Positions 2,725-63,255 of a stretch of DNA of 64,000 bases are shown here, piece after piece. The notes below the pieces were generated by a model, which was given only the letters and a program-made list of their open reading frames with translations, did not search any database and was not told where the DNA came from. The translations under genes and the position numbers were made by a program. Source of the stretch: Rickettsia typhi (GTDB lineage Bacteria; Pseudomonadota; Alphaproteobacteria; Rickettsiales; UBA1997); the NCBI GenBank assembly GCA_945862455.1, contig CAMAXU010000002.1:257-64256 (forward strand), read 5' to 3'. Within the stretch, counting starts at the first letter, position 1. The number at the start of each line of letters is the position of its first letter.

Positions 2725-3141
2725 ATGCCTTCTCAAATTGAAAAACTTTGTTTTGATCGCAATATAAAATTAACTGAAAACCGCCGCATCATCGCGCGCG
2801 TGATTTCTGACAGCGTCGATCATCCCGATGTTGAAGAGGTTTTTTATCGCGCTTCAAAAATTAATCCTAAAATCGGAATTGCCACAGTTTATCGCGCCGT
2901 AAAAATGTTTGAAGAACTCGGCGTAATTGCCAAGCATGACTTCGGCAGCAAGGGTCGCGCTCGTTATGAAAAACTTGAAGGCGAAGATCATCACGATCAT
3001 TTGGTCGATATTACGACTGATGAAGTTCATGAATTTTTTAATGAAGAATTAGAAAAATTAAAAACTAAAATTGCCCAAGAAAAAGGTTTTGAATTGATTG
3101 GGCATAGATTAGAGCTTTATTGCAGACCATTGAAGAAGTAG
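2725..3141 (+). CDS. Fur-family transcriptional regulator (Irr/Mur-like, no CxxC pairs)
   Basis: Winged-helix region ..RRIIARVISDS.DHPDVEEVFYRA....IGIATVYRAVKMFEELGV.. and an EDHHDHLVD metal site. It lacks the structural-Zn cysteines. Confidence 0.8.
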   Translation: MPSQIEKLCFDRNIKLTENRRIIARVISDSVDHPDVEEVFYRASKINPKIGIATVYRAVKMFEELGVIAKHDFGSKGRARYEKLEGEDHHDHLVDITTDEVHEFFNEELEKLKTKIAQEKGFELIGHRLELYCRPLKK

Positions 3142-5699: not shown

Positions 5700-5770
5700 A
5701 AGGAATTCTATTCGTGACGGCGTTCGCCTTTGACGACCTACAGCTTTGGCGACTACAGCGCGGCATCACA

Positions 5771-5833
5771 CTTCGTTAACACTTCATCTCGATTGCTTTT
5801 TGCGGATCAATCGAGATGAAGTGTTAACGAAAG
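5771..5833. repeat. perfect 25-bp-stem palindrome immediately 3' of tRNA-Phe
   Basis: cttcgttaacacttcatctcgattg / caatcgagatgaagtgttaacgaaag around a 9-13 nt loop. It may terminate the tRNA transcript. Confidence 0.75.
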
Positions 5834-5837
5834 CGGA

Positions 5838-5913
5838 TGGTGCCTGAAGCCGGAATCGAACCAGCGACACAAGGATTTTCAGTCCTTTGCTCTACCAACT
5901 GAGCTATTCAGGC
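5838..5913 (-). tRNA. tRNA-Phe (GAA)
   Basis: The reverse complement gcctgaatagctcagttggtagagcaaaggactgaaaatccttgtgtcgctggttcgattccggcttcaggcacca folds as a cloverleaf with anticodon loop CTGAAAA. CCA is encoded. Confidence 0.95.
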
Positions 5914-5918
5914 ATAAT

Positions 5919-6052
5919 GAGTCTGTCTCGTAAATCAAGCTTTTCGCAATTCTGATTTTTTTGAAACGCACGTACATCTGGGTACGCTTACCTTTCAAAA
6001 AAATCAGAATCACAAAAATTTCTTAGAAAATTTTGATTTACGCAACAGACTT
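5919..6052. repeat. nested palindromic element, family PE-4
   Basis: TIRs gagtctgtctcgtaaatcaa / ttgatttacgcaacagact; inner repeat gcaattctgatttttttgaaa / tttcaaaaaaatcagaatcac. The termini match the mini-element in the GNAT gene at 63016..63061. Confidence 0.8.
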
Positions 6053-6141
6053 ATAATTTATTTCTACTCAAAACGAAGGCGTGCAAGCTAAGAATGGTCT
6101 TTTATTTTGCAAGCTTGCTTAAAAATTAATTTCAAAAATTT

Positions 6142-8398: not shown

Positions 8399-8743
8399 TT
8401 ACTTTTTAGCAGGAGCTTCAACAGCAGCTGGAGCAGCAGCTTCTTCGGCTTTCACTTCAGCTTTTTTAGCTTTTTTATGAGCTTTTTTAGCGGCTTTAAC
8501 TTCAGGTTTAGCTTCAGCAACTTTAGCATCAGCTTTAACTTCTGCAGTTTTAACTTCAGCTTTAGCAGCTACTGGAGCAGCAACTTTAGCATCAGCTTTA
8601 GCAGCAGCTACTGGAGCAGCGGCTTTAACTTCAGCTTTAGCAGCTACTGGAGCAGCAGCTTTAACTTCAGCTTTAACAGCTTGAGCTTGAGCAGCAGTTG
8701 CGAAAAGAGAAACTGCAGCAATGATCAATGAAATTTTTTTCAT
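8399..8743 (-). CDS. secreted Ala/Lys-rich tandem-repeat protein
   Basis: Start set at MKKISLIIAAVSLFATAAQAQA (signal peptide), followed by AKAEVKAAAPVAA-type 13-aa repeats (about 39-nt DNA period) and a KKAHKKAKK tail. Confidence 0.7.
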   Translation of the reverse strand: MKKISLIIAAVSLFATAAQAQAVKAEVKAAAPVAAKAEVKAAAPVAAAKADAKVAAPVAAKAEVKTAEVKADAKVAEAKPEVKAAKKAHKKAKKAEVKAEEAAAPAAVEAPAKK

Positions 8744-8893
8744 TTTATTTATACACCAAATTGGTTTTGAGAGGCTAATCATTTCTGATTAGTTTCTTTC
8801 GATAATTATTAAGCTTAGCAGCTTTTAAGGGGCTGCAGGCAAAAATAACAGAAAGGCGGGCGGCAAAATATGGACCCAAATTTGTTTGTCAAA

Positions 8894-10318
8894 TTAAAAG
8901 TGAATCACTTTTTGGTAAGCATCTAAAACCGCTTCATGCATCATTTCTGACATTGTTGGATGAGCAAAAATTGTATGCATTAAATCTTCTTCGGTTAATT
9001 CTGCCTGTTTCGCGATTACATAACCTTGAATCATCTCAGTAACTTCAGCGCCAATTAAATGCGCACCTAAAAGCTCACCAGTTTTTTCATCAAAAATAAC
9101 TTTAATTAAACCTTCGGTTTCACCCATCGCAATTGCTTTGCCATTCGCCATGTAAGGAAAGCGACCGACTTTAATTTTTTTACCGGCGGCAATTGCTTTT
9201 TTCTCAGTCAAGCCAACAGAAGCGATTTGCGGCATTGAATAAGTGCAACCCGGAATATTTTCTTTTTTGATCGGGTGAATTTTTTTGGCATCATGTTTAC
9301 CCATTTTGCTGGCAATTTTTTCAGCAGCAATAACACCTTCGTGAGATGCTTTGTGAGCCAGCCAAGGAGCGCCAGCAACGTCGCCAATTGCAAAAATATT
9401 GGCATCAGCAGTTTCTAAATAACCATTAATTTCGATATTGCCTTTAACCACTTTTACTTTGGTTTTTTCTAAACCTAAATTTTCAGTATTGGCAACAATT
9501 CCAACTGCCATTATAACTTTTTCAGCAGTAATTTCTTCCAATTTTCCAGCGATTTCAACTGATGCAGCAACTGATCCTTTGCCTTTTTTCAAAGATTTAA
9601 GCGCGGCGGAAGTGTAAATTTTAATGCCTTGTTTTTCGAAAGATTTGCGTGCCAATTTTGAAATTTCTTCATCTTCAACCGGAAGAATATTTTCTGCCAT
9701 TTCAATTAGTGTAACTTCTGAACCCATGTTTTTGTAGAATGAGGCAAATTCACAACCAATCGCGCCCGAGCCAACAACCAACAAAGATTTTGGTAAAGCT
9801 TTCGGAGTCATTGCTTCGCGGTAAGTCCAGATATTTTCCACATCAGGTTCCATGCCGGCAATCACACGCGCGCGCGCTCCTGTTGCGATGATGAAATAAG
9901 CAGCTTCAACTTGCGCAACTTCTTTATTATCTTTTGAAACCGAGATTTTTTTTGAATCTAAAAATTTGGCAAAGCCATCAATAACTTCGATTTTATTTTT
10001 CTTCATCAGACCACCAATTCCACCGCTTAATTTTTTAGAAACACTGCGTGAACGTTCAATAATTTTAGCAAAATCAAAAGTAATTTTTTCAGCGGCAAAG
10101 CCATATGATTCAAGGTTATGCAACATATGATTAACTTCTGAAGATTTCAAAAGCGCTTTGGTTGGAATGCAACCCCAGTTCAAACAAATTCCGCCTAAAT
10201 GATTAGCTTCAACAATACCAACTTTTAATCCAAGTTGAGCGGCGCGAATTGCAGCTACATAGCCGCCCGGACCAGCACCAATAACACAAAGGTCGAACTT
10301 TTTTGCTTGAGAAGTCAT
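8894..10318 (-). CDS. lpdA: dihydrolipoyl dehydrogenase (E3)
   Basis: GAGPGGYVAAIRAAQLG, redox-active CLNWGCIPTK, a second NAD fold VVGSGAIGCEFA, and C-terminal HAHPTMSE. Confidence 0.95.
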   Translation of the reverse strand: MTSQAKKFDLCVIGAGPGGYVAAIRAAQLGLKVGIVEANHLGGICLNWGCIPTKALLKSSEVNHMLHNLESYGFAAEKITFDFAKIIERSRSVSKKLSGGIGGLMKKNKIEVIDGFAKFLDSKKISVSKDNKEVAQVEAAYFIIATGARARVIAGMEPDVENIWTYREAMTPKALPKSLLVVGSGAIGCEFASFYKNMGSEVTLIEMAENILPVEDEEISKLARKSFEKQGIKIYTSAALKSLKKGKGSVAASVEIAGKLEEITAEKVIMAVGIVANTENLGLEKTKVKVVKGNIEINGYLETADANIFAIGDVAGAPWLAHKASHEGVIAAEKIASKMGKHDAKKIHPIKKENIPGCTYSMPQIASVGLTEKKAIAAGKKIKVGRFPYMANGKAIAMGETEGLIKVIFDEKTGELLGAHLIGAEVTEMIQGYVIAKQAELTEEDLMHTIFAHPTMSEMMHEAVLDAYQKVIHF

Positions 10319-10324
10319 AAAAAA

Positions 10325-10512
10325 TTTTAGATTTAAGATTTAGGGATTTATAATTAATCAAATTCGACTTTCGTCGAATTTGGGTTTTTTTGAATTGCTA
10401 CGCGGCGAGTTAATCGCCGCATCCGCAATAGATTTTATTTTTTTAAAAGATCGATATCTTCAATCAGTTTGACTATGGAACAAACATTAAATCCTAAATC
10501 TTAAATCTAAAA
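10325..10512. repeat. nested palindromic element, family PE-3
   Basis: TIRs ttttagatttaagatttagggattta / taaatcctaaatcttaaatctaaaa. The internal module aattaatcaaattcgactttcgtcgaatttgg..tgaattgctacgcggcg is also at 52363..52415. The internal module ttgcggatgcggcgattaactcgccgcgtagcaa has a relative at 12243..12285. Confidence 0.8.
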
Positions 10513-10522
10513 TCTAAAATCA

Positions 10523-11624
10523 ATGTCCGCAGAAATTGAAAATTTGATCAGCCAGGTTGAAACCTCACTGGCTTTGATTAAGAGGTGTCTTTGAGCCGGA
10601 AAAAATTAAAGAAAAATTAATAGAATTAAATCAAAAATCAGAAGATCCTGAATTGTGGAATGATAAAACAGAAGCACAAAAAATTCTTAAAGAGAAATCA
10701 ATTTTAGAAACCAAATTAAACCAATTTTTGGCAATTGAAACCAGCTTAAAAGATAATCGTGAATATGCAGAATTAGCAAAGTTGGAAAGTGATTTGCAGC
10801 TTTTAAAAGATATTGAAAAAACTTTAATTTCTCTCAAAAAAGAATCCGACAGTTTTGAAGTTGAATGTTTGTTTTCTGGCGAAACCGATTTAAATAATTG
10901 CTTCGTTGACATCAACGCTGGCGCTGGCGGAACTGATTCTTGTGATTTTGGCGTGATGTTGCTTCGTATGTACGAAAGATTTGCCAATTCCAAAAAATTT
11001 AAAGTAGAAATTGTCAGCATTTTAGATGGCGAAGAAGCTGGAATTCGCAGCGCTACAATGAAAATTTCAGGACGTTTTGCTTATGGTTGGATGAAGATGG
11101 AATCAGGAGTTCACCGCTTGGTTCGCATCTCGCCATTTAATGCTAATGGTAAAAGACAAACCAGCTTCACATCAGTTTGGGTTTATCCCGAAGTTGATGA
11201 TGAAATTGAAATCACGATTGAAGAAAAAGATTTGCGCGTTGACACTTTTCGCGCTTCTGGCGCTGGTGGACAACATGTTAATAAAACCGATTCTGCTGTG
11301 CGCATGACGCATTTGCCAACCAATATTGTTGTGCAATGTCAAAGTGATCGCTCGCAAATTCGCAATCGCGCCGAATGTATTAAAATGCTGAAATCGCGGC
11401 TTTTTGATTTGGAAATGAAAAAGAAAAAAGAAGCGCAATCGCTTTCAGAATCAGTTAAAACCGACAATAGTTGGGGTCATCAAATTCGCTCTTACGTGTT
11501 GCATCCTTACCAATTGGTGAAAGATTTGCGCACCGATTACGAAACAGGAAATATCCAAGCCGTTTTAGATGGCGAAATTGAAGGTTTTATCAAAGCAGCT
11601 TTGGCAGAAGGTTTAAAAAAATGA
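10523..11624 (+). CDS. prfB: peptide chain release factor 2, programmed +1 frameshift
   Basis: ORF0 MSAEIENLISQVETSLALIKRCL ends at in-frame TGA (10592..10594). The +1 frame continues EPEKIKEKLIELNQKSEDPELWND.. into the listed 10653..11624 ORF (SPF tripeptide, GGQHVNKTDSAVR). Confidence 0.93.
10581..10595 (+). promoter_or_regulatory. RF2 autoregulatory +1 frameshift site
   Basis: agaGGTGt CTT TGA g: an internal SD-like GAGG three nt upstream of the slippery CUU-UGA, matching the canonical prfB recoding cassette. Confidence 0.85.
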
Positions 11625-12232
11625 ATGAAAAATTAGTTAAAGTGCAAACTCTTTTTGAGCTAAAAAACTTCGCATTATCAAAAATAAAAATAATTAAGAA
11701 GCCCGTTACTCATACAGAAATACTATTTTACTACTCGGCTTATTTTTATTACTTCGACTCTTTGGTTGATTTTATGAAAAAAGATAGAATTTCCAAAAAT
11801 TTTACAGAAAAAATGGAAAAATCTTTTGGAAGCAATAACCGAGAATTTTTATCCAAAATAAGAAATTCATTTACACATCATGGTGAAATGATCAGTAGTA
11901 CTGTTCACGTTGGACATGATGGCGTGTTTTATCCCATTTGCTTTGAAGACGCGCAAAGATTTGATCCGCCAAAAACTTATTTATCGGAAATAATCGAATT
12001 TTGTGAAGAAAGAATAGGAAAAGTGATTTTGGAATCGCTTGAAGAGGCTCAATTATTTGGAAATAATATGAACGAAAACCAGATAAGGCGGGAAAATCTT
12101 CGAACTATTAATCGCATTAAAGAACATCAACATGTTCCAGATTTTGCGAAAACAAATTTCCCTTCTATAGATTTTAATAAAGTTATCTCAGATCAAGAAA
12201 ATACATTGAAAGAGCTTTTATTGAAAAAGTAA
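11621..12232 (+). CDS. hypothetical protein with Rx4H (HEPN-like) motif
   Basis: ATGA overlap with the prfB stop. The only motif seen is FLSKIRNSFTHHGE (R81-x4-H86). No other family recognised. Confidence 0.5.
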   Translation: MNEKLVKVQTLFELKNFALSKIKIIKKPVTHTEILFYYSAYFYYFDSLVDFMKKDRISKNFTEKMEKSFGSNNREFLSKIRNSFTHHGEMISSTVHVGHDGVFYPICFEDAQRFDPPKTYLSEIIEFCEERIGKVILESLEEAQLFGNNMNENQIRRENLRTINRIKEHQHVPDFAKTNFPSIDFNKVISDQENTLKELLLKK

Positions 12233-49871: not shown

Positions 49872-49900
49872 GATTGGTTTTCTTAATCATAATTAAAAAA

Positions 49901-49937
49901 GGGAAGTTCCTTAAAAAAATGGAGCTTCCCTTTTTTG
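49901..49937 (+). terminator. rho-independent terminator after rplY
   Basis: gggaagttcc / ggagcttccc stem followed by tttttt. Confidence 0.75.
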
Positions 49938-49972
49938 TATTCATGCTTGATTTGTGACAGAGCCAAAATCTA

Positions 49973-50022
49973 TACCAAAAAGACAAAGTTATAGCTATCA
50001 AGAGATAGTTAATTTGGTATAT
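49973..50022. repeat. PE-1 half element (left half of the 8212 copy, inverted)
   Basis: taccaaaaagacaaagttatagctatcaagagatagttaatttggtatat is the near-exact reverse complement of 8212..8262. It overlaps the SDR gene 3' end. Confidence 0.85.
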
Positions 50023-50792
50023 TCTGCCAAGCCTTTCTTCCTTGGTAATCTCGCAAAAATTGGATCGGTAATTTTTGTTGAAAGCAAAGTTGACAACCAA
50101 ACCACAAAATAAAGGGGGAATGGAAAAGCGATTCGTGATTGATTTTTCTCTAAACCATTTTTAATAATTTTTGCACATTTATGCGCTTCCATAATAAATG
50201 GCATTGGAAACTCATTTACATCTGTCATCGGAGTTTTGACATAACCTGGGCAAATTGCATTTACTTCAATTCCCATTTTCTCTAAATTTCCGCGCAATCC
50301 TTCGGCGTAAACTCTAACTGCCGATTTACTTGCGGAGTAGGCAGGAGAACTTGGCAAGCCACGAAATCCAGCTAAAGAAGACACAATTCCAATTTGACCT
50401 TTTCTGCGGTTTTTCATCTTTTCAATTGCCGGATGAATTATGTTTAAAACGCCATTTAAATTAGTGGTAAAAATTTTTTGAACTTGCGACGCTGCTTCAA
50501 GACCTTCTGAAGTTCCGGCTGAAATTCCGGCATTGGCAATTACCAAATCTAGCGCAAAATTCTCTTCGATTTTTTCAATCCAATTTTTTGTTGCTGCTTC
50601 ATCACAAACATCCAAAATCTCTAAATAAACATTTGCTTTTAGTTCGGCGCAGAGAGTTTTTGTGACTTGTAATTTTTCTAAATTGCGACCACATAAAAAT
50701 AAATTTACTCCGCTTTTTGAGTAAGCAATAGCAAGGGCGCGACCTATTCCGCTGCCGCCGCCTGTGATTAAAATATTTTTAGGATTTTTCAT
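49998..50792 (-). CDS. SDR-family oxidoreductase
   Basis: ITGGGSGIGRALA, NAG and YSASK catalytic motifs. The C-terminal EYTKLTIS-stop is encoded by the PE-1 arm. Confidence 0.88.
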   Translation of the reverse strand: MKNPKNILITGGGSGIGRALAIAYSKSGVNLFLCGRNLEKLQVTKTLCAELKANVYLEILDVCDEAATKNWIEKIEENFALDLVIANAGISAGTSEGLEAASQVQKIFTTNLNGVLNIIHPAIEKMKNRRKGQIGIVSSLAGFRGLPSSPAYSASKSAVRVYAEGLRGNLEKMGIEVNAICPGYVKTPMTDVNEFPMPFIMEAHKCAKIIKNGLEKNQSRIAFPFPLYFVVWLSTLLSTKITDPIFARLPRKKGLAEYTKLTIS

Positions 50793-62703: not shown

Positions 62704-63255
62704 TTATAATTCGCGAAACATTATGTAAGCATCAACATAGCCTAAAACCTTATGGTTAAAGCCTTGAGGAATGGTACCAATAGTTTTAAATCCGACTGAT
62801 TGCCATAAGTTTACAGCAGCTTTATTTGTGGAAACAACAAAATTAAATTGCATTGCTTTATAGCCCAATTCTTTTGCGGTGCTAATTGAATGAAGTGCGA
62901 GAGATTTTCCAATCCCAAACCCGCGTTTATTTTCATCAACAATATAACTAGCATTTGCAATATGTGAGCCACGATCTACTCGATTTGGTTTGATTAAATA
63001 AACACCCACAATGAGTCTGTCGCAAATCAAAATTTTCTAAGAAATTTTGATTTGCGACAGATTCACAATTTCGTCATCAATTTTTGCCACAAAAGTTTTA
63101 GCCGATTTATTCATCCATTTGGCGTAAGCTTCTTCTTTTGTGGTTTCATCATCATTTACATAAGTTTCGCCGGCGGAAATTACACTTTTAAAAATGCGCC
63201 AAATCTCATCAAAATTTTCTGTAGTTGCGAGTGTGATTTTAATGTTTAATTCCAT
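62704..63255 (-). pseudogene. GNAT-family N-acetyltransferase interrupted by an in-frame TAG inside a palindromic insert
   Basis: ORFs 63037..63255 and 62704..63030 are in the same frame, separated only by TAG (63037..63039). The joined product has the GNAT core (..RGFGIGK.L..H.I..AKELGYKAMQFN.V..TN..AV.LW...GF). Confidence 0.75.
63016..63061. repeat. PE-4 mini-element (arms only) inside the GNAT gene
   Basis: 20-bp perfect arms tctgtcgcaaatcaaaattt / aaattttgatttgcgacaga around tctaag. The arms match the PE-4 termini at 5919..6052. Confidence 0.85.

Follow-up and report, generated by a model that had tools for sequence, protein, structure and literature searches.

The window, by which is meant the whole 64-kb stretch of DNA that was analysed, comes from an uncultured freshwater alphaproteobacterium that carries the label 'Rickettsiales bacterium' at NCBI. 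On its minus strand a GNAT gene has nuoE on one side and an ABC-F gene on the other, the three being co-directional and tightly spaced; the stop codon of nuoE (...GAA TAG) falls about one base ahead of the GNAT ATG. Translation of the minus strand from 63255 to 62704 stays in one frame and meets only one internal stop (...KIDDEIVNLSQIKIS*KILICDRLIVGVYLIKPN...), which agrees with the preliminary description of this DNA, where two open reading frames (63255..63037, 72 aa, and 63030..62704, 108 aa, both on the minus strand and in a common frame) were said to be separated by a TAG. The features that matter for what follows are collected in Table 1.

Table 1 Coordinates, in the window, of the interrupted GNAT gene, the inserted element and the related elements.
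Feature	Position	Strand	Remarks
Premature in-frame TAG	63037..63039	-	Supplied by the loop of the element
GNAT N-terminal fragment, 72 codons	63040..63255	-	Last 8 codons (NLSQIKIS) encoded by the element
GNAT C-terminal remainder	62704..63007	-	Includes the acetyl-CoA motif RGFGIGK and the stop codon
52-bp mini-MITE	63013..63064		TIRs of ~19-26 nt (GAGTCTGTCGCAAATCAAA... / ...TTTGATTTGCGACAGATTC) and 6-nt loop TCTAAG; evidence: palindrome, 57-bp gap, family termini
Target-site duplication, copy 1	63008..63012		ACAAT on the plus strand; ATTGT on the gene strand
Target-site duplication, copy 2	63065..63069		ACAAT
Full-length 134-bp MITE beside tRNA-Phe	5919..6052		5-bp duplication ATAAT at 5914-5918 and 6053-6057
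Solo diverged TIR of a related element	49946..49964	-	GGCTCTGTCACAAATCAAG; CTTGATTTGTGACAGAGCC; abuts a second small palindromic repeat

Taken alone, the 72-aa N-terminal fragment gives no Pfam match at all and the 108-aa reading frame matches PF00583 at 2.1e-09, while the reconstructed 164-aa protein matches the same family at 1.5e-14 (54.7 bits, against a cut-off of 20.7). Both in the reconstructed gene and in the uninterrupted alleles described below, the GNAT domain is single and continuous and includes the acetyl-CoA-binding motif; in the window it is split. The closest solved structures to the reconstructed protein are PDB 4h89 (1.6e-34) and yeast Mpr1 (~5e-14), and it is in these matches, together with that to PF00583, that its likeness to the Mpr1-like and 4h89-like GNATs lies; the difference is that the window gene is broken by an element. 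None of the NCBIfam equivalogs attains its cut-off against the reconstructed protein, and one allele of the gene is named 'L-amino acid N-acyltransferase YncA' by JGI. In annotation, the two short reading frames should be treated as the remains of one broken GNAT gene, not as separate genes.

What separates the two parts is a palindrome. The arms of 20 nt at 63016-63035 and 63042-63061 are perfectly complementary, as had been described, and if one mismatch is allowed they extend to 24 nt (63012-63035 and 63042-63065) around the loop TCTAAG at 63036-63041, so that the minus-strand TAG (63039..63037) sits inside the six loop nucleotides. The arm has no further occurrence in the window, and in none of 100 shuffles were two matches obtained. 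As RNA, the element region has a predicted folding energy of -33.5 kcal/mol (z = -6.3). A target-site duplication, which the preliminary description had named as something to look for, is present as ACAAT immediately to either side; a 6-bp duplication (CACAAT) was considered and rejected, since the termini seen throughout the family put the C within the TIR and leave 5 bp for the duplication. The element of 52 bp and the 5-bp duplication together make an insertion of 57 bp, or 19 codons, rather than the roughly 17 codons first estimated. On either strand, only frame 0 of the element is free of stop codons; the GNAT frame passes through it in frame 1 and so meets the TAG.

Empty, filled and deleted alleles

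Relatives were retrieved by exact NuoE sequence, which gave nine metagenome contigs with the gene order petABC-nuoE-GNAT-ABC-F. In seven contigs encoding an identical NuoE the GNAT gene is an uninterrupted one of 495 bp (164 aa), with exactly 57 bp fewer than in the window. On the gene strand the window reads GAA ATTGT (GAATCTGTCGC...GCGACAGACTC ATTGT) GGGTGTT, the part in brackets being the insertion, where the empty alleles read GAA ATTGY GGGTGTT; one of these (L009) has ATTGT once, in the form ATTGTG exactly. The insertion site is codon 63/64 of the 164-aa gene. The comparison of empty with filled sites that had been suggested at the outset can be made at very close range, the closest of the strains with an empty site (L003) being 99.5% identical to the window over 6.7 kb. 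Two more distant alleles (L001 and L002), ~5% divergent in the GNAT gene, are also empty, from which it follows that the insertion is derived.

The filled allele has been found in two assemblies. An exact look-up of the 72-aa N-terminal fragment among contig-encoded proteins returned no record, and it was by way of the 101-aa product of the C-terminal fragment that the second instance was recovered. This contig, L146 (874 bp, from another ENA assembly), carries the identical insertion and differs from the window at 3 of 538 positions. A further contig, L145 (Logan SRR22387980, 915-1202), reads ATTGT-GAGTCTGTCGC-ACTTCATTC, having kept the first target copy and an 11-nt remnant of the TIR; of the 157 bp that it is missing, 41 nt come from the element and 111 bp from the gene, the rest being the second target copy, and the junction lies at a TCGCA microhomology. 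Because it retains the TIR remnant, and because its upstream SNPs are those of L146, L145 descends from the filled allele.

Two contigs carry a different lesion. In L007 (~1245-1659) and L008 (~1665-2079), over a region orthologous to ~62930-63012 of the window, the GNAT gene has suffered a frameshifting deletion of 80 bp. It starts exactly where ATTGT ends, nothing of the element is left, and the flanking SNPs are unlike those of the filled alleles. On a rough estimate the probability that this breakpoint coincides with the element site by chance is well under 1%; it may be that these contigs record a second, independent event at the site, or that the element was lost completely along with flanking DNA. 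There are, then, three allele types with a common breakpoint: the filled allele, the 157-bp deletion with its TIR remnant, and the 80-bp deletion.

Since the filled allele is known from only two assemblies, and since some amplification methods are known to produce palindromic chimeras, it has to be asked whether the palindrome might be a product of assembly or amplification (a hairpin chimera). That this should be so is extremely improbable, and the point may be regarded as excluded: the insert is not a local inverted duplication but belongs to a repeat family with many copies elsewhere (see below), its target duplication is perfect and, at 5 bp, as long as is usual in that family, it was assembled identically in the independent sample that yielded L146, and the derived allele L145 still retains one end of it.

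What the alleles show is a young insertion for which the population is still polymorphic, and a palindrome-bearing allele that is already eroding by way of deletions anchored at the element. Codon differences among the intact alleles amount to ~10 synonymous as against 8 non-synonymous, and these sequences suggest that the GNAT gene is under only moderate constraint. As a separate observation on the same contigs, L001, L002 and L004 carry, at 8629-12141, a gene of 1159-1170 aa without any Pfam match between the ABC-F gene and the ABC-membrane transporter gene; this gene is absent from the window (~61190) and from L003 (8548).

The element family and the preserved frame

The preliminary description held that the arms of the palindrome match the termini of a 134-bp element that lies beside tRNA-Phe (5838-5913) in the same window, and this is confirmed: the two elements share a 25-nt exact match (~6014-6038 against the reverse complement of 63024-63048) and have the same termini (GAGTCTGTC...), differing there by a 2-nt indel. 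Counting the solo TIR of Table 1 as a remnant, the window contains two copies and one remnant, and the 134-bp copy recurs, at the same site, in five contigs from relatives. When JGI metagenome contigs were scanned with the 25-mer common to both window copies, 22 loci were obtained, all from lake metagenomes. A scan of GTDB genomes with a degenerate TIR pattern proved too unspecific, in that most of its 113 matches arose by chance and only two were relevant, namely L060 ('Rickettsiales bacterium') and L109 ('uncultured Alphaproteobacteria bacterium'), both of which have related copies. In total more than 20 MITE-related copies are known outside the window.

The family TIR, GAGTCTGTCGC(GT)AAATCAAA, is conserved across the copies, which fall into size classes of 52-53 bp (the window copy in GNAT, L129 and L143), 130-146 bp (113-146 bp at its widest; the common form, to which the 134-bp copy belongs) and ~300 bp; elements of the last class have another small palindromic repeat nested in them (L128, L133 and L141). 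No family member contains an open reading frame of transposase size. The 5-bp flanks are identical at all five positions in 12 of 20 copies (19 complete copies and one related IS) and at four of the five in three more, the probability of a complete match by chance being 0.0014 per copy, and the duplicated targets are AT-rich (ATTAT, TTTAA, TTAAC, ATTGT, AAGAT). As to how the smallest class is related to the others, comparison of the two forms points to the short one consisting of the left ~38 nt of the full-length form joined to its right ~17 nt at a TTTG microhomology, and it is because of this joining that the short form would be an almost perfect hairpin.

It had been implied that the preservation of the reading frame across the insertion was meaningful. 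The family as a whole gives this idea no encouragement. Element length plus 5, taken modulo 3, is spread evenly over 0, 1 and 2, and 14 of 16 tested copies are intergenic, in the sense that a long open reading frame across the restored site is missing; the in-frame insertion is accordingly a coincidence. Only the window copy clearly interrupts a gene. L125, which was considered as a second in-frame intragenic copy, was rejected, since neither of the two genes that flank the element there is interrupted by it; it ends shortly before the signal peptide of a lipoprotein.

At the level of sequence, the element has everything by which a prokaryotic MITE is recognised: small size without a transposase gene, TIRs, a target-site duplication of fixed length, and dispersed copies. 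With the IS-derived bacterial MITEs such as Correia elements, RUP, MITEAba12 and QMITE it shares its shortness, AT-richness, TIRs, fixed-length duplication and lack of coding capacity, as well as a stable stem-loop, many dispersed and mostly intergenic copies, and the occasional inactivation of a gene. Prokaryotic MITEs range from 50 to 500 bp, and those of type II resemble an autonomous IS in the TIR only (PMC10969869), as is the case here. The differences are that, at 52 bp, the present element is at the low end of that range and is essentially two TIRs and a loop, that its host is an uncultured freshwater alphaproteobacterium, and that the family sequence is absent from the searchable literature, in which the TIR matched only unrelated primers. 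The family is thus previously unrecorded, and its TIR, its 5-bp duplication and its size classes are now defined.

A palindromic repeat that has entered a coding gene without frameshift, in an alphaproteobacterium labelled as belonging to the Rickettsiales, naturally calls to mind the Rickettsia palindromic elements (RPEs). These are ~150 bp long and open in the inserted frame, 44 of them lie within genes of R. conorii, and the proteins concerned stay intact with an added peptide (PMC10969869). The element described here differs in that it brings a stop codon, so that the host protein gains no peptide segment, in that its family has no bias towards in-frame lengths and is mostly intergenic, and in that it has clear TIRs and a 5-bp duplication. 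Judged against descriptions of RPEs, rather than against RPE consensus sequences, it is not an RPE in its behaviour.

A candidate parental insertion sequence

The family members carry no transposase gene of their own, and none is present anywhere in the 64-kb window. One contig (L137) carries, ~600 bp from a truncated MITE, a 1373-bp IS with ends GACCCTGTCGCAAATCC... and GAGCCCGTCGCAAATCC... and a perfect 5-bp target-site duplication (ACTAT). This copy is itself defective, the transposase gene being thrown out of frame, at ~2980-3060 of the contig, where ~59 extra bases separate ...KDKIWF from GYKQH.... The repaired transposase has more than 2,500 homologues, many of them intact at 325-329 aa; contigs encoding one of these (P0048) contain a 1313-bp IS with a 329-aa transposase and ends GAGACTGTCGCAAAC / GAGCCCGTCGCAAATC (GAGACTGTCGCAAACCCAA and GAGCCCGTCGCAAATCTAA). 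P0048 and its relatives have the domains PF05598 (N-terminal), PF01609 (DDE) and PF13612, an IS5-like architecture, and carry the JGI name 'IS5 family transposase'.

The ends of the MITE and of this IS agree at ~15 of 19 positions, the likeness being confined to the TIR and the sequences further in being unrelated, and the IS, like the MITE, makes 5-bp duplications. On the strength of the agreement between the TIRs, the equal length of the duplications and the co-occurrence of the two on one contig, we infer that an IS5-family transposase acted in trans to move the element, such mobilisation being plausible. No IS with exactly the terminal sequence of the MITE was found among the contigs examined, and next to the long variants with a single TIR (L130 and L136) there is no transposase gene, the neighbours being genes such as those for LysR and HtpG.

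Assignment of the candidate partner to IS5 needs some qualification. In favour are its length of 1313-1373 bp, its single transposase of ~329 aa and its TIRs, which start with GAG; the TIR of the MITE also resembles the end of IS903, GGCTTTGTTGAATAAATC. In the ISfinder table, the duplications made by the subgroups of the IS5 family are of 2-4, 8 or 9 bp, by comparison with which one of 5 bp is unusual. Moreover, the transposase stays below the curated cut-off of all the NCBIfam models for IS5, IS1182 and IS982, the best scores being 127.9 bits against 270 for NF033551 (IS1182) and 120.8 bits against 140 for NF033581 (IS5). An IS5-family element is a plausible partner of the MITE family.

Fate of the gene

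The preliminary description left three outcomes side by side: a fresh pseudogene, a two-piece protein restarted after the stop, and read-through of the TAG. The first of these is the best supported. The TAG can be counted as an ordinary stop in this genome because nuoE uses it, and one allele that derives from the filled one, L145, has already lost further sequence. It is nonetheless worth setting out how the GNAT might still work, either by read-through to give a protein with a 19-residue insertion, or by restart after the stop to give two pieces that assemble. The insertion does keep the frame, the C-terminal fragment retains the acetyl-CoA motif and a PF00583 match, and a start codon lies 6 nt past the stop, so that termination-reinitiation is conceivable; the possible restart codons are the TTG at 63030 and the GTG chosen by the gene caller for the 101-aa product (P0036). 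Proteins that tolerate in-frame insertions of MITEs are known in the case of RPEs (PMC10969869), and for bacteria there are reports of internal stops at which read-through is possible (PMC7918605).

Despite these points, a working product is unlikely. Neither the TTG nor the GTG is preceded by a Shine-Dalgarno motif, and both are in or beside the predicted hairpin, the TTG being within its stem; the N-terminal fragment has no recognisable domain by itself; and the element family shows no preference for coding regions or in-frame lengths. By fold position in the alignment with 4h89, the insertion appears to fall not in a surface loop but within a conserved strand region (...EIVG...) that follows the N-terminal helices and precedes the acetyl-CoA motif. 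Finally, the frameshifting deletions at the same site in L145 and in L007/L008 point to loss of the gene rather than its maintenance.

A different possibility is that the element has been recruited as a regulatory hairpin (a REP-like terminator, an attenuator or a determinant of mRNA stability) acting on the downstream ABC-F gene, the loss of GNAT being a side effect. The stem-loop in the transcript is predicted to be very stable, and in a set of co-directional, tightly spaced genes a hairpin combined with a premature stop could, by a polar effect, reduce expression of ABC-F; a role as terminators has been suggested for MITE hairpins (PMC10969869). A scan of the sequence, however, found neither an intrinsic-terminator nor a promoter consensus overlapping the element, and Rfam contains no family for it, the only matches being generic hairpin ones, below threshold, to miRNA precursors of eukaryotes. 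The allele is also rare among the sampled strains, most of which manage without the element, and the deletion alleles remove the hairpin. Recruitment of this kind is very unlikely.

The reading that best accounts for the locus, to which we would give a probability of about 0.88, is that a recent insertion of a 52-bp MITE has made a polymorphic GNAT pseudogene. The sequence of events is as follows. A non-autonomous element, the minimal form of the MITE with two TIRs and a 6-nt loop, inserted at codon 63/64 of the GNAT gene; it would have been mobilised in trans by an IS5-family transposase whose own IS has similar ends of ~19 nt. DDE transposases make staggered cuts, from which a target duplication results, and in this case the 5-bp target ATTGT was duplicated. 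The 57 bp so added leave the frame unchanged, but the loop is read as TAG and translation is predicted to end after 72 residues, giving a fresh pseudogene; GNAT function would thereby be lost. The filled allele has since been eroded by deletions anchored at the element. In its essentials this is the recent MITE-like insertion originally suggested, now supported by the empty sites, the 5-bp duplication, the related copies elsewhere and the IS5-family IS with similar ends.

One may go further, though only tentatively, and suppose that the 52-bp form is itself the transposing unit, which would place it among the smallest active substrates of DDE transposons in bacteria, and that the palindrome triggers deletions anchored at its end, so that a two-step 'hit then erase' loss of a gene is visible in a natural population. 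We consider this extension doubtful, if worth keeping in mind; as an alternative, the 52-bp form may have arisen in place from a longer copy instead of transposing as such. No new mechanism is revealed by the locus, the element being an undescribed member of the MITE class, and its points of interest are the minimal size of 52 bp, the 5-bp duplication and the visible series of alleles. What it does provide is a clean, dated case of gene inactivation by a minimal MITE, in which public metagenomes contain intact alleles side by side with interrupted and partly deleted ones; the series could serve to mark strain dynamics, and amounts to a small natural experiment on the promotion of deletion by palindromic insertions.

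Some minor observations on the related and neighbouring repeats may be added. The solo TIR at 49946 lies just after a terminator-like hairpin (49895-49936), and the second palindromic repeat that it abuts, at ~49970-50025 (to 50030; TATACCAAA...TTTGGTATA), is the one also nested within the ~300-bp elements of L128, L133 and L141. Between the Cu-oxidase_4 gene and tRNA-Phe, at ~5768-5835, the window has a long inverted repeat with arms of ~25 nt (CTTCGTTAACACTTCATCTCGATTG ... CAATCGAGATGAAGTGTTAACGAAAG), in place of which L151 has a different palindrome; at the place of the 134-bp MITE itself, L150 has different, rearranged sequence. The central ~30 bp of that MITE (~5966-5998) are inverted between close strains, L147 and L148 reading GAAACGCACGTACATCT.. 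and L149 and L151 reading GAAAGGTAAGCGTACCTA.., as though the segment had flipped between the inverted repeats inside the element, which recalls the inversions that have reportedly been seen in Correia elements. One 146-bp copy, present at the same locus in L109 (7513-7658), L131 (4807-4952) and L140 (4499-4644), has a small internal tandem duplication (AACTTTTCGTCGAACTTTTCG) and no target duplication that can be recognised (2/5), and is probably an older insertion.
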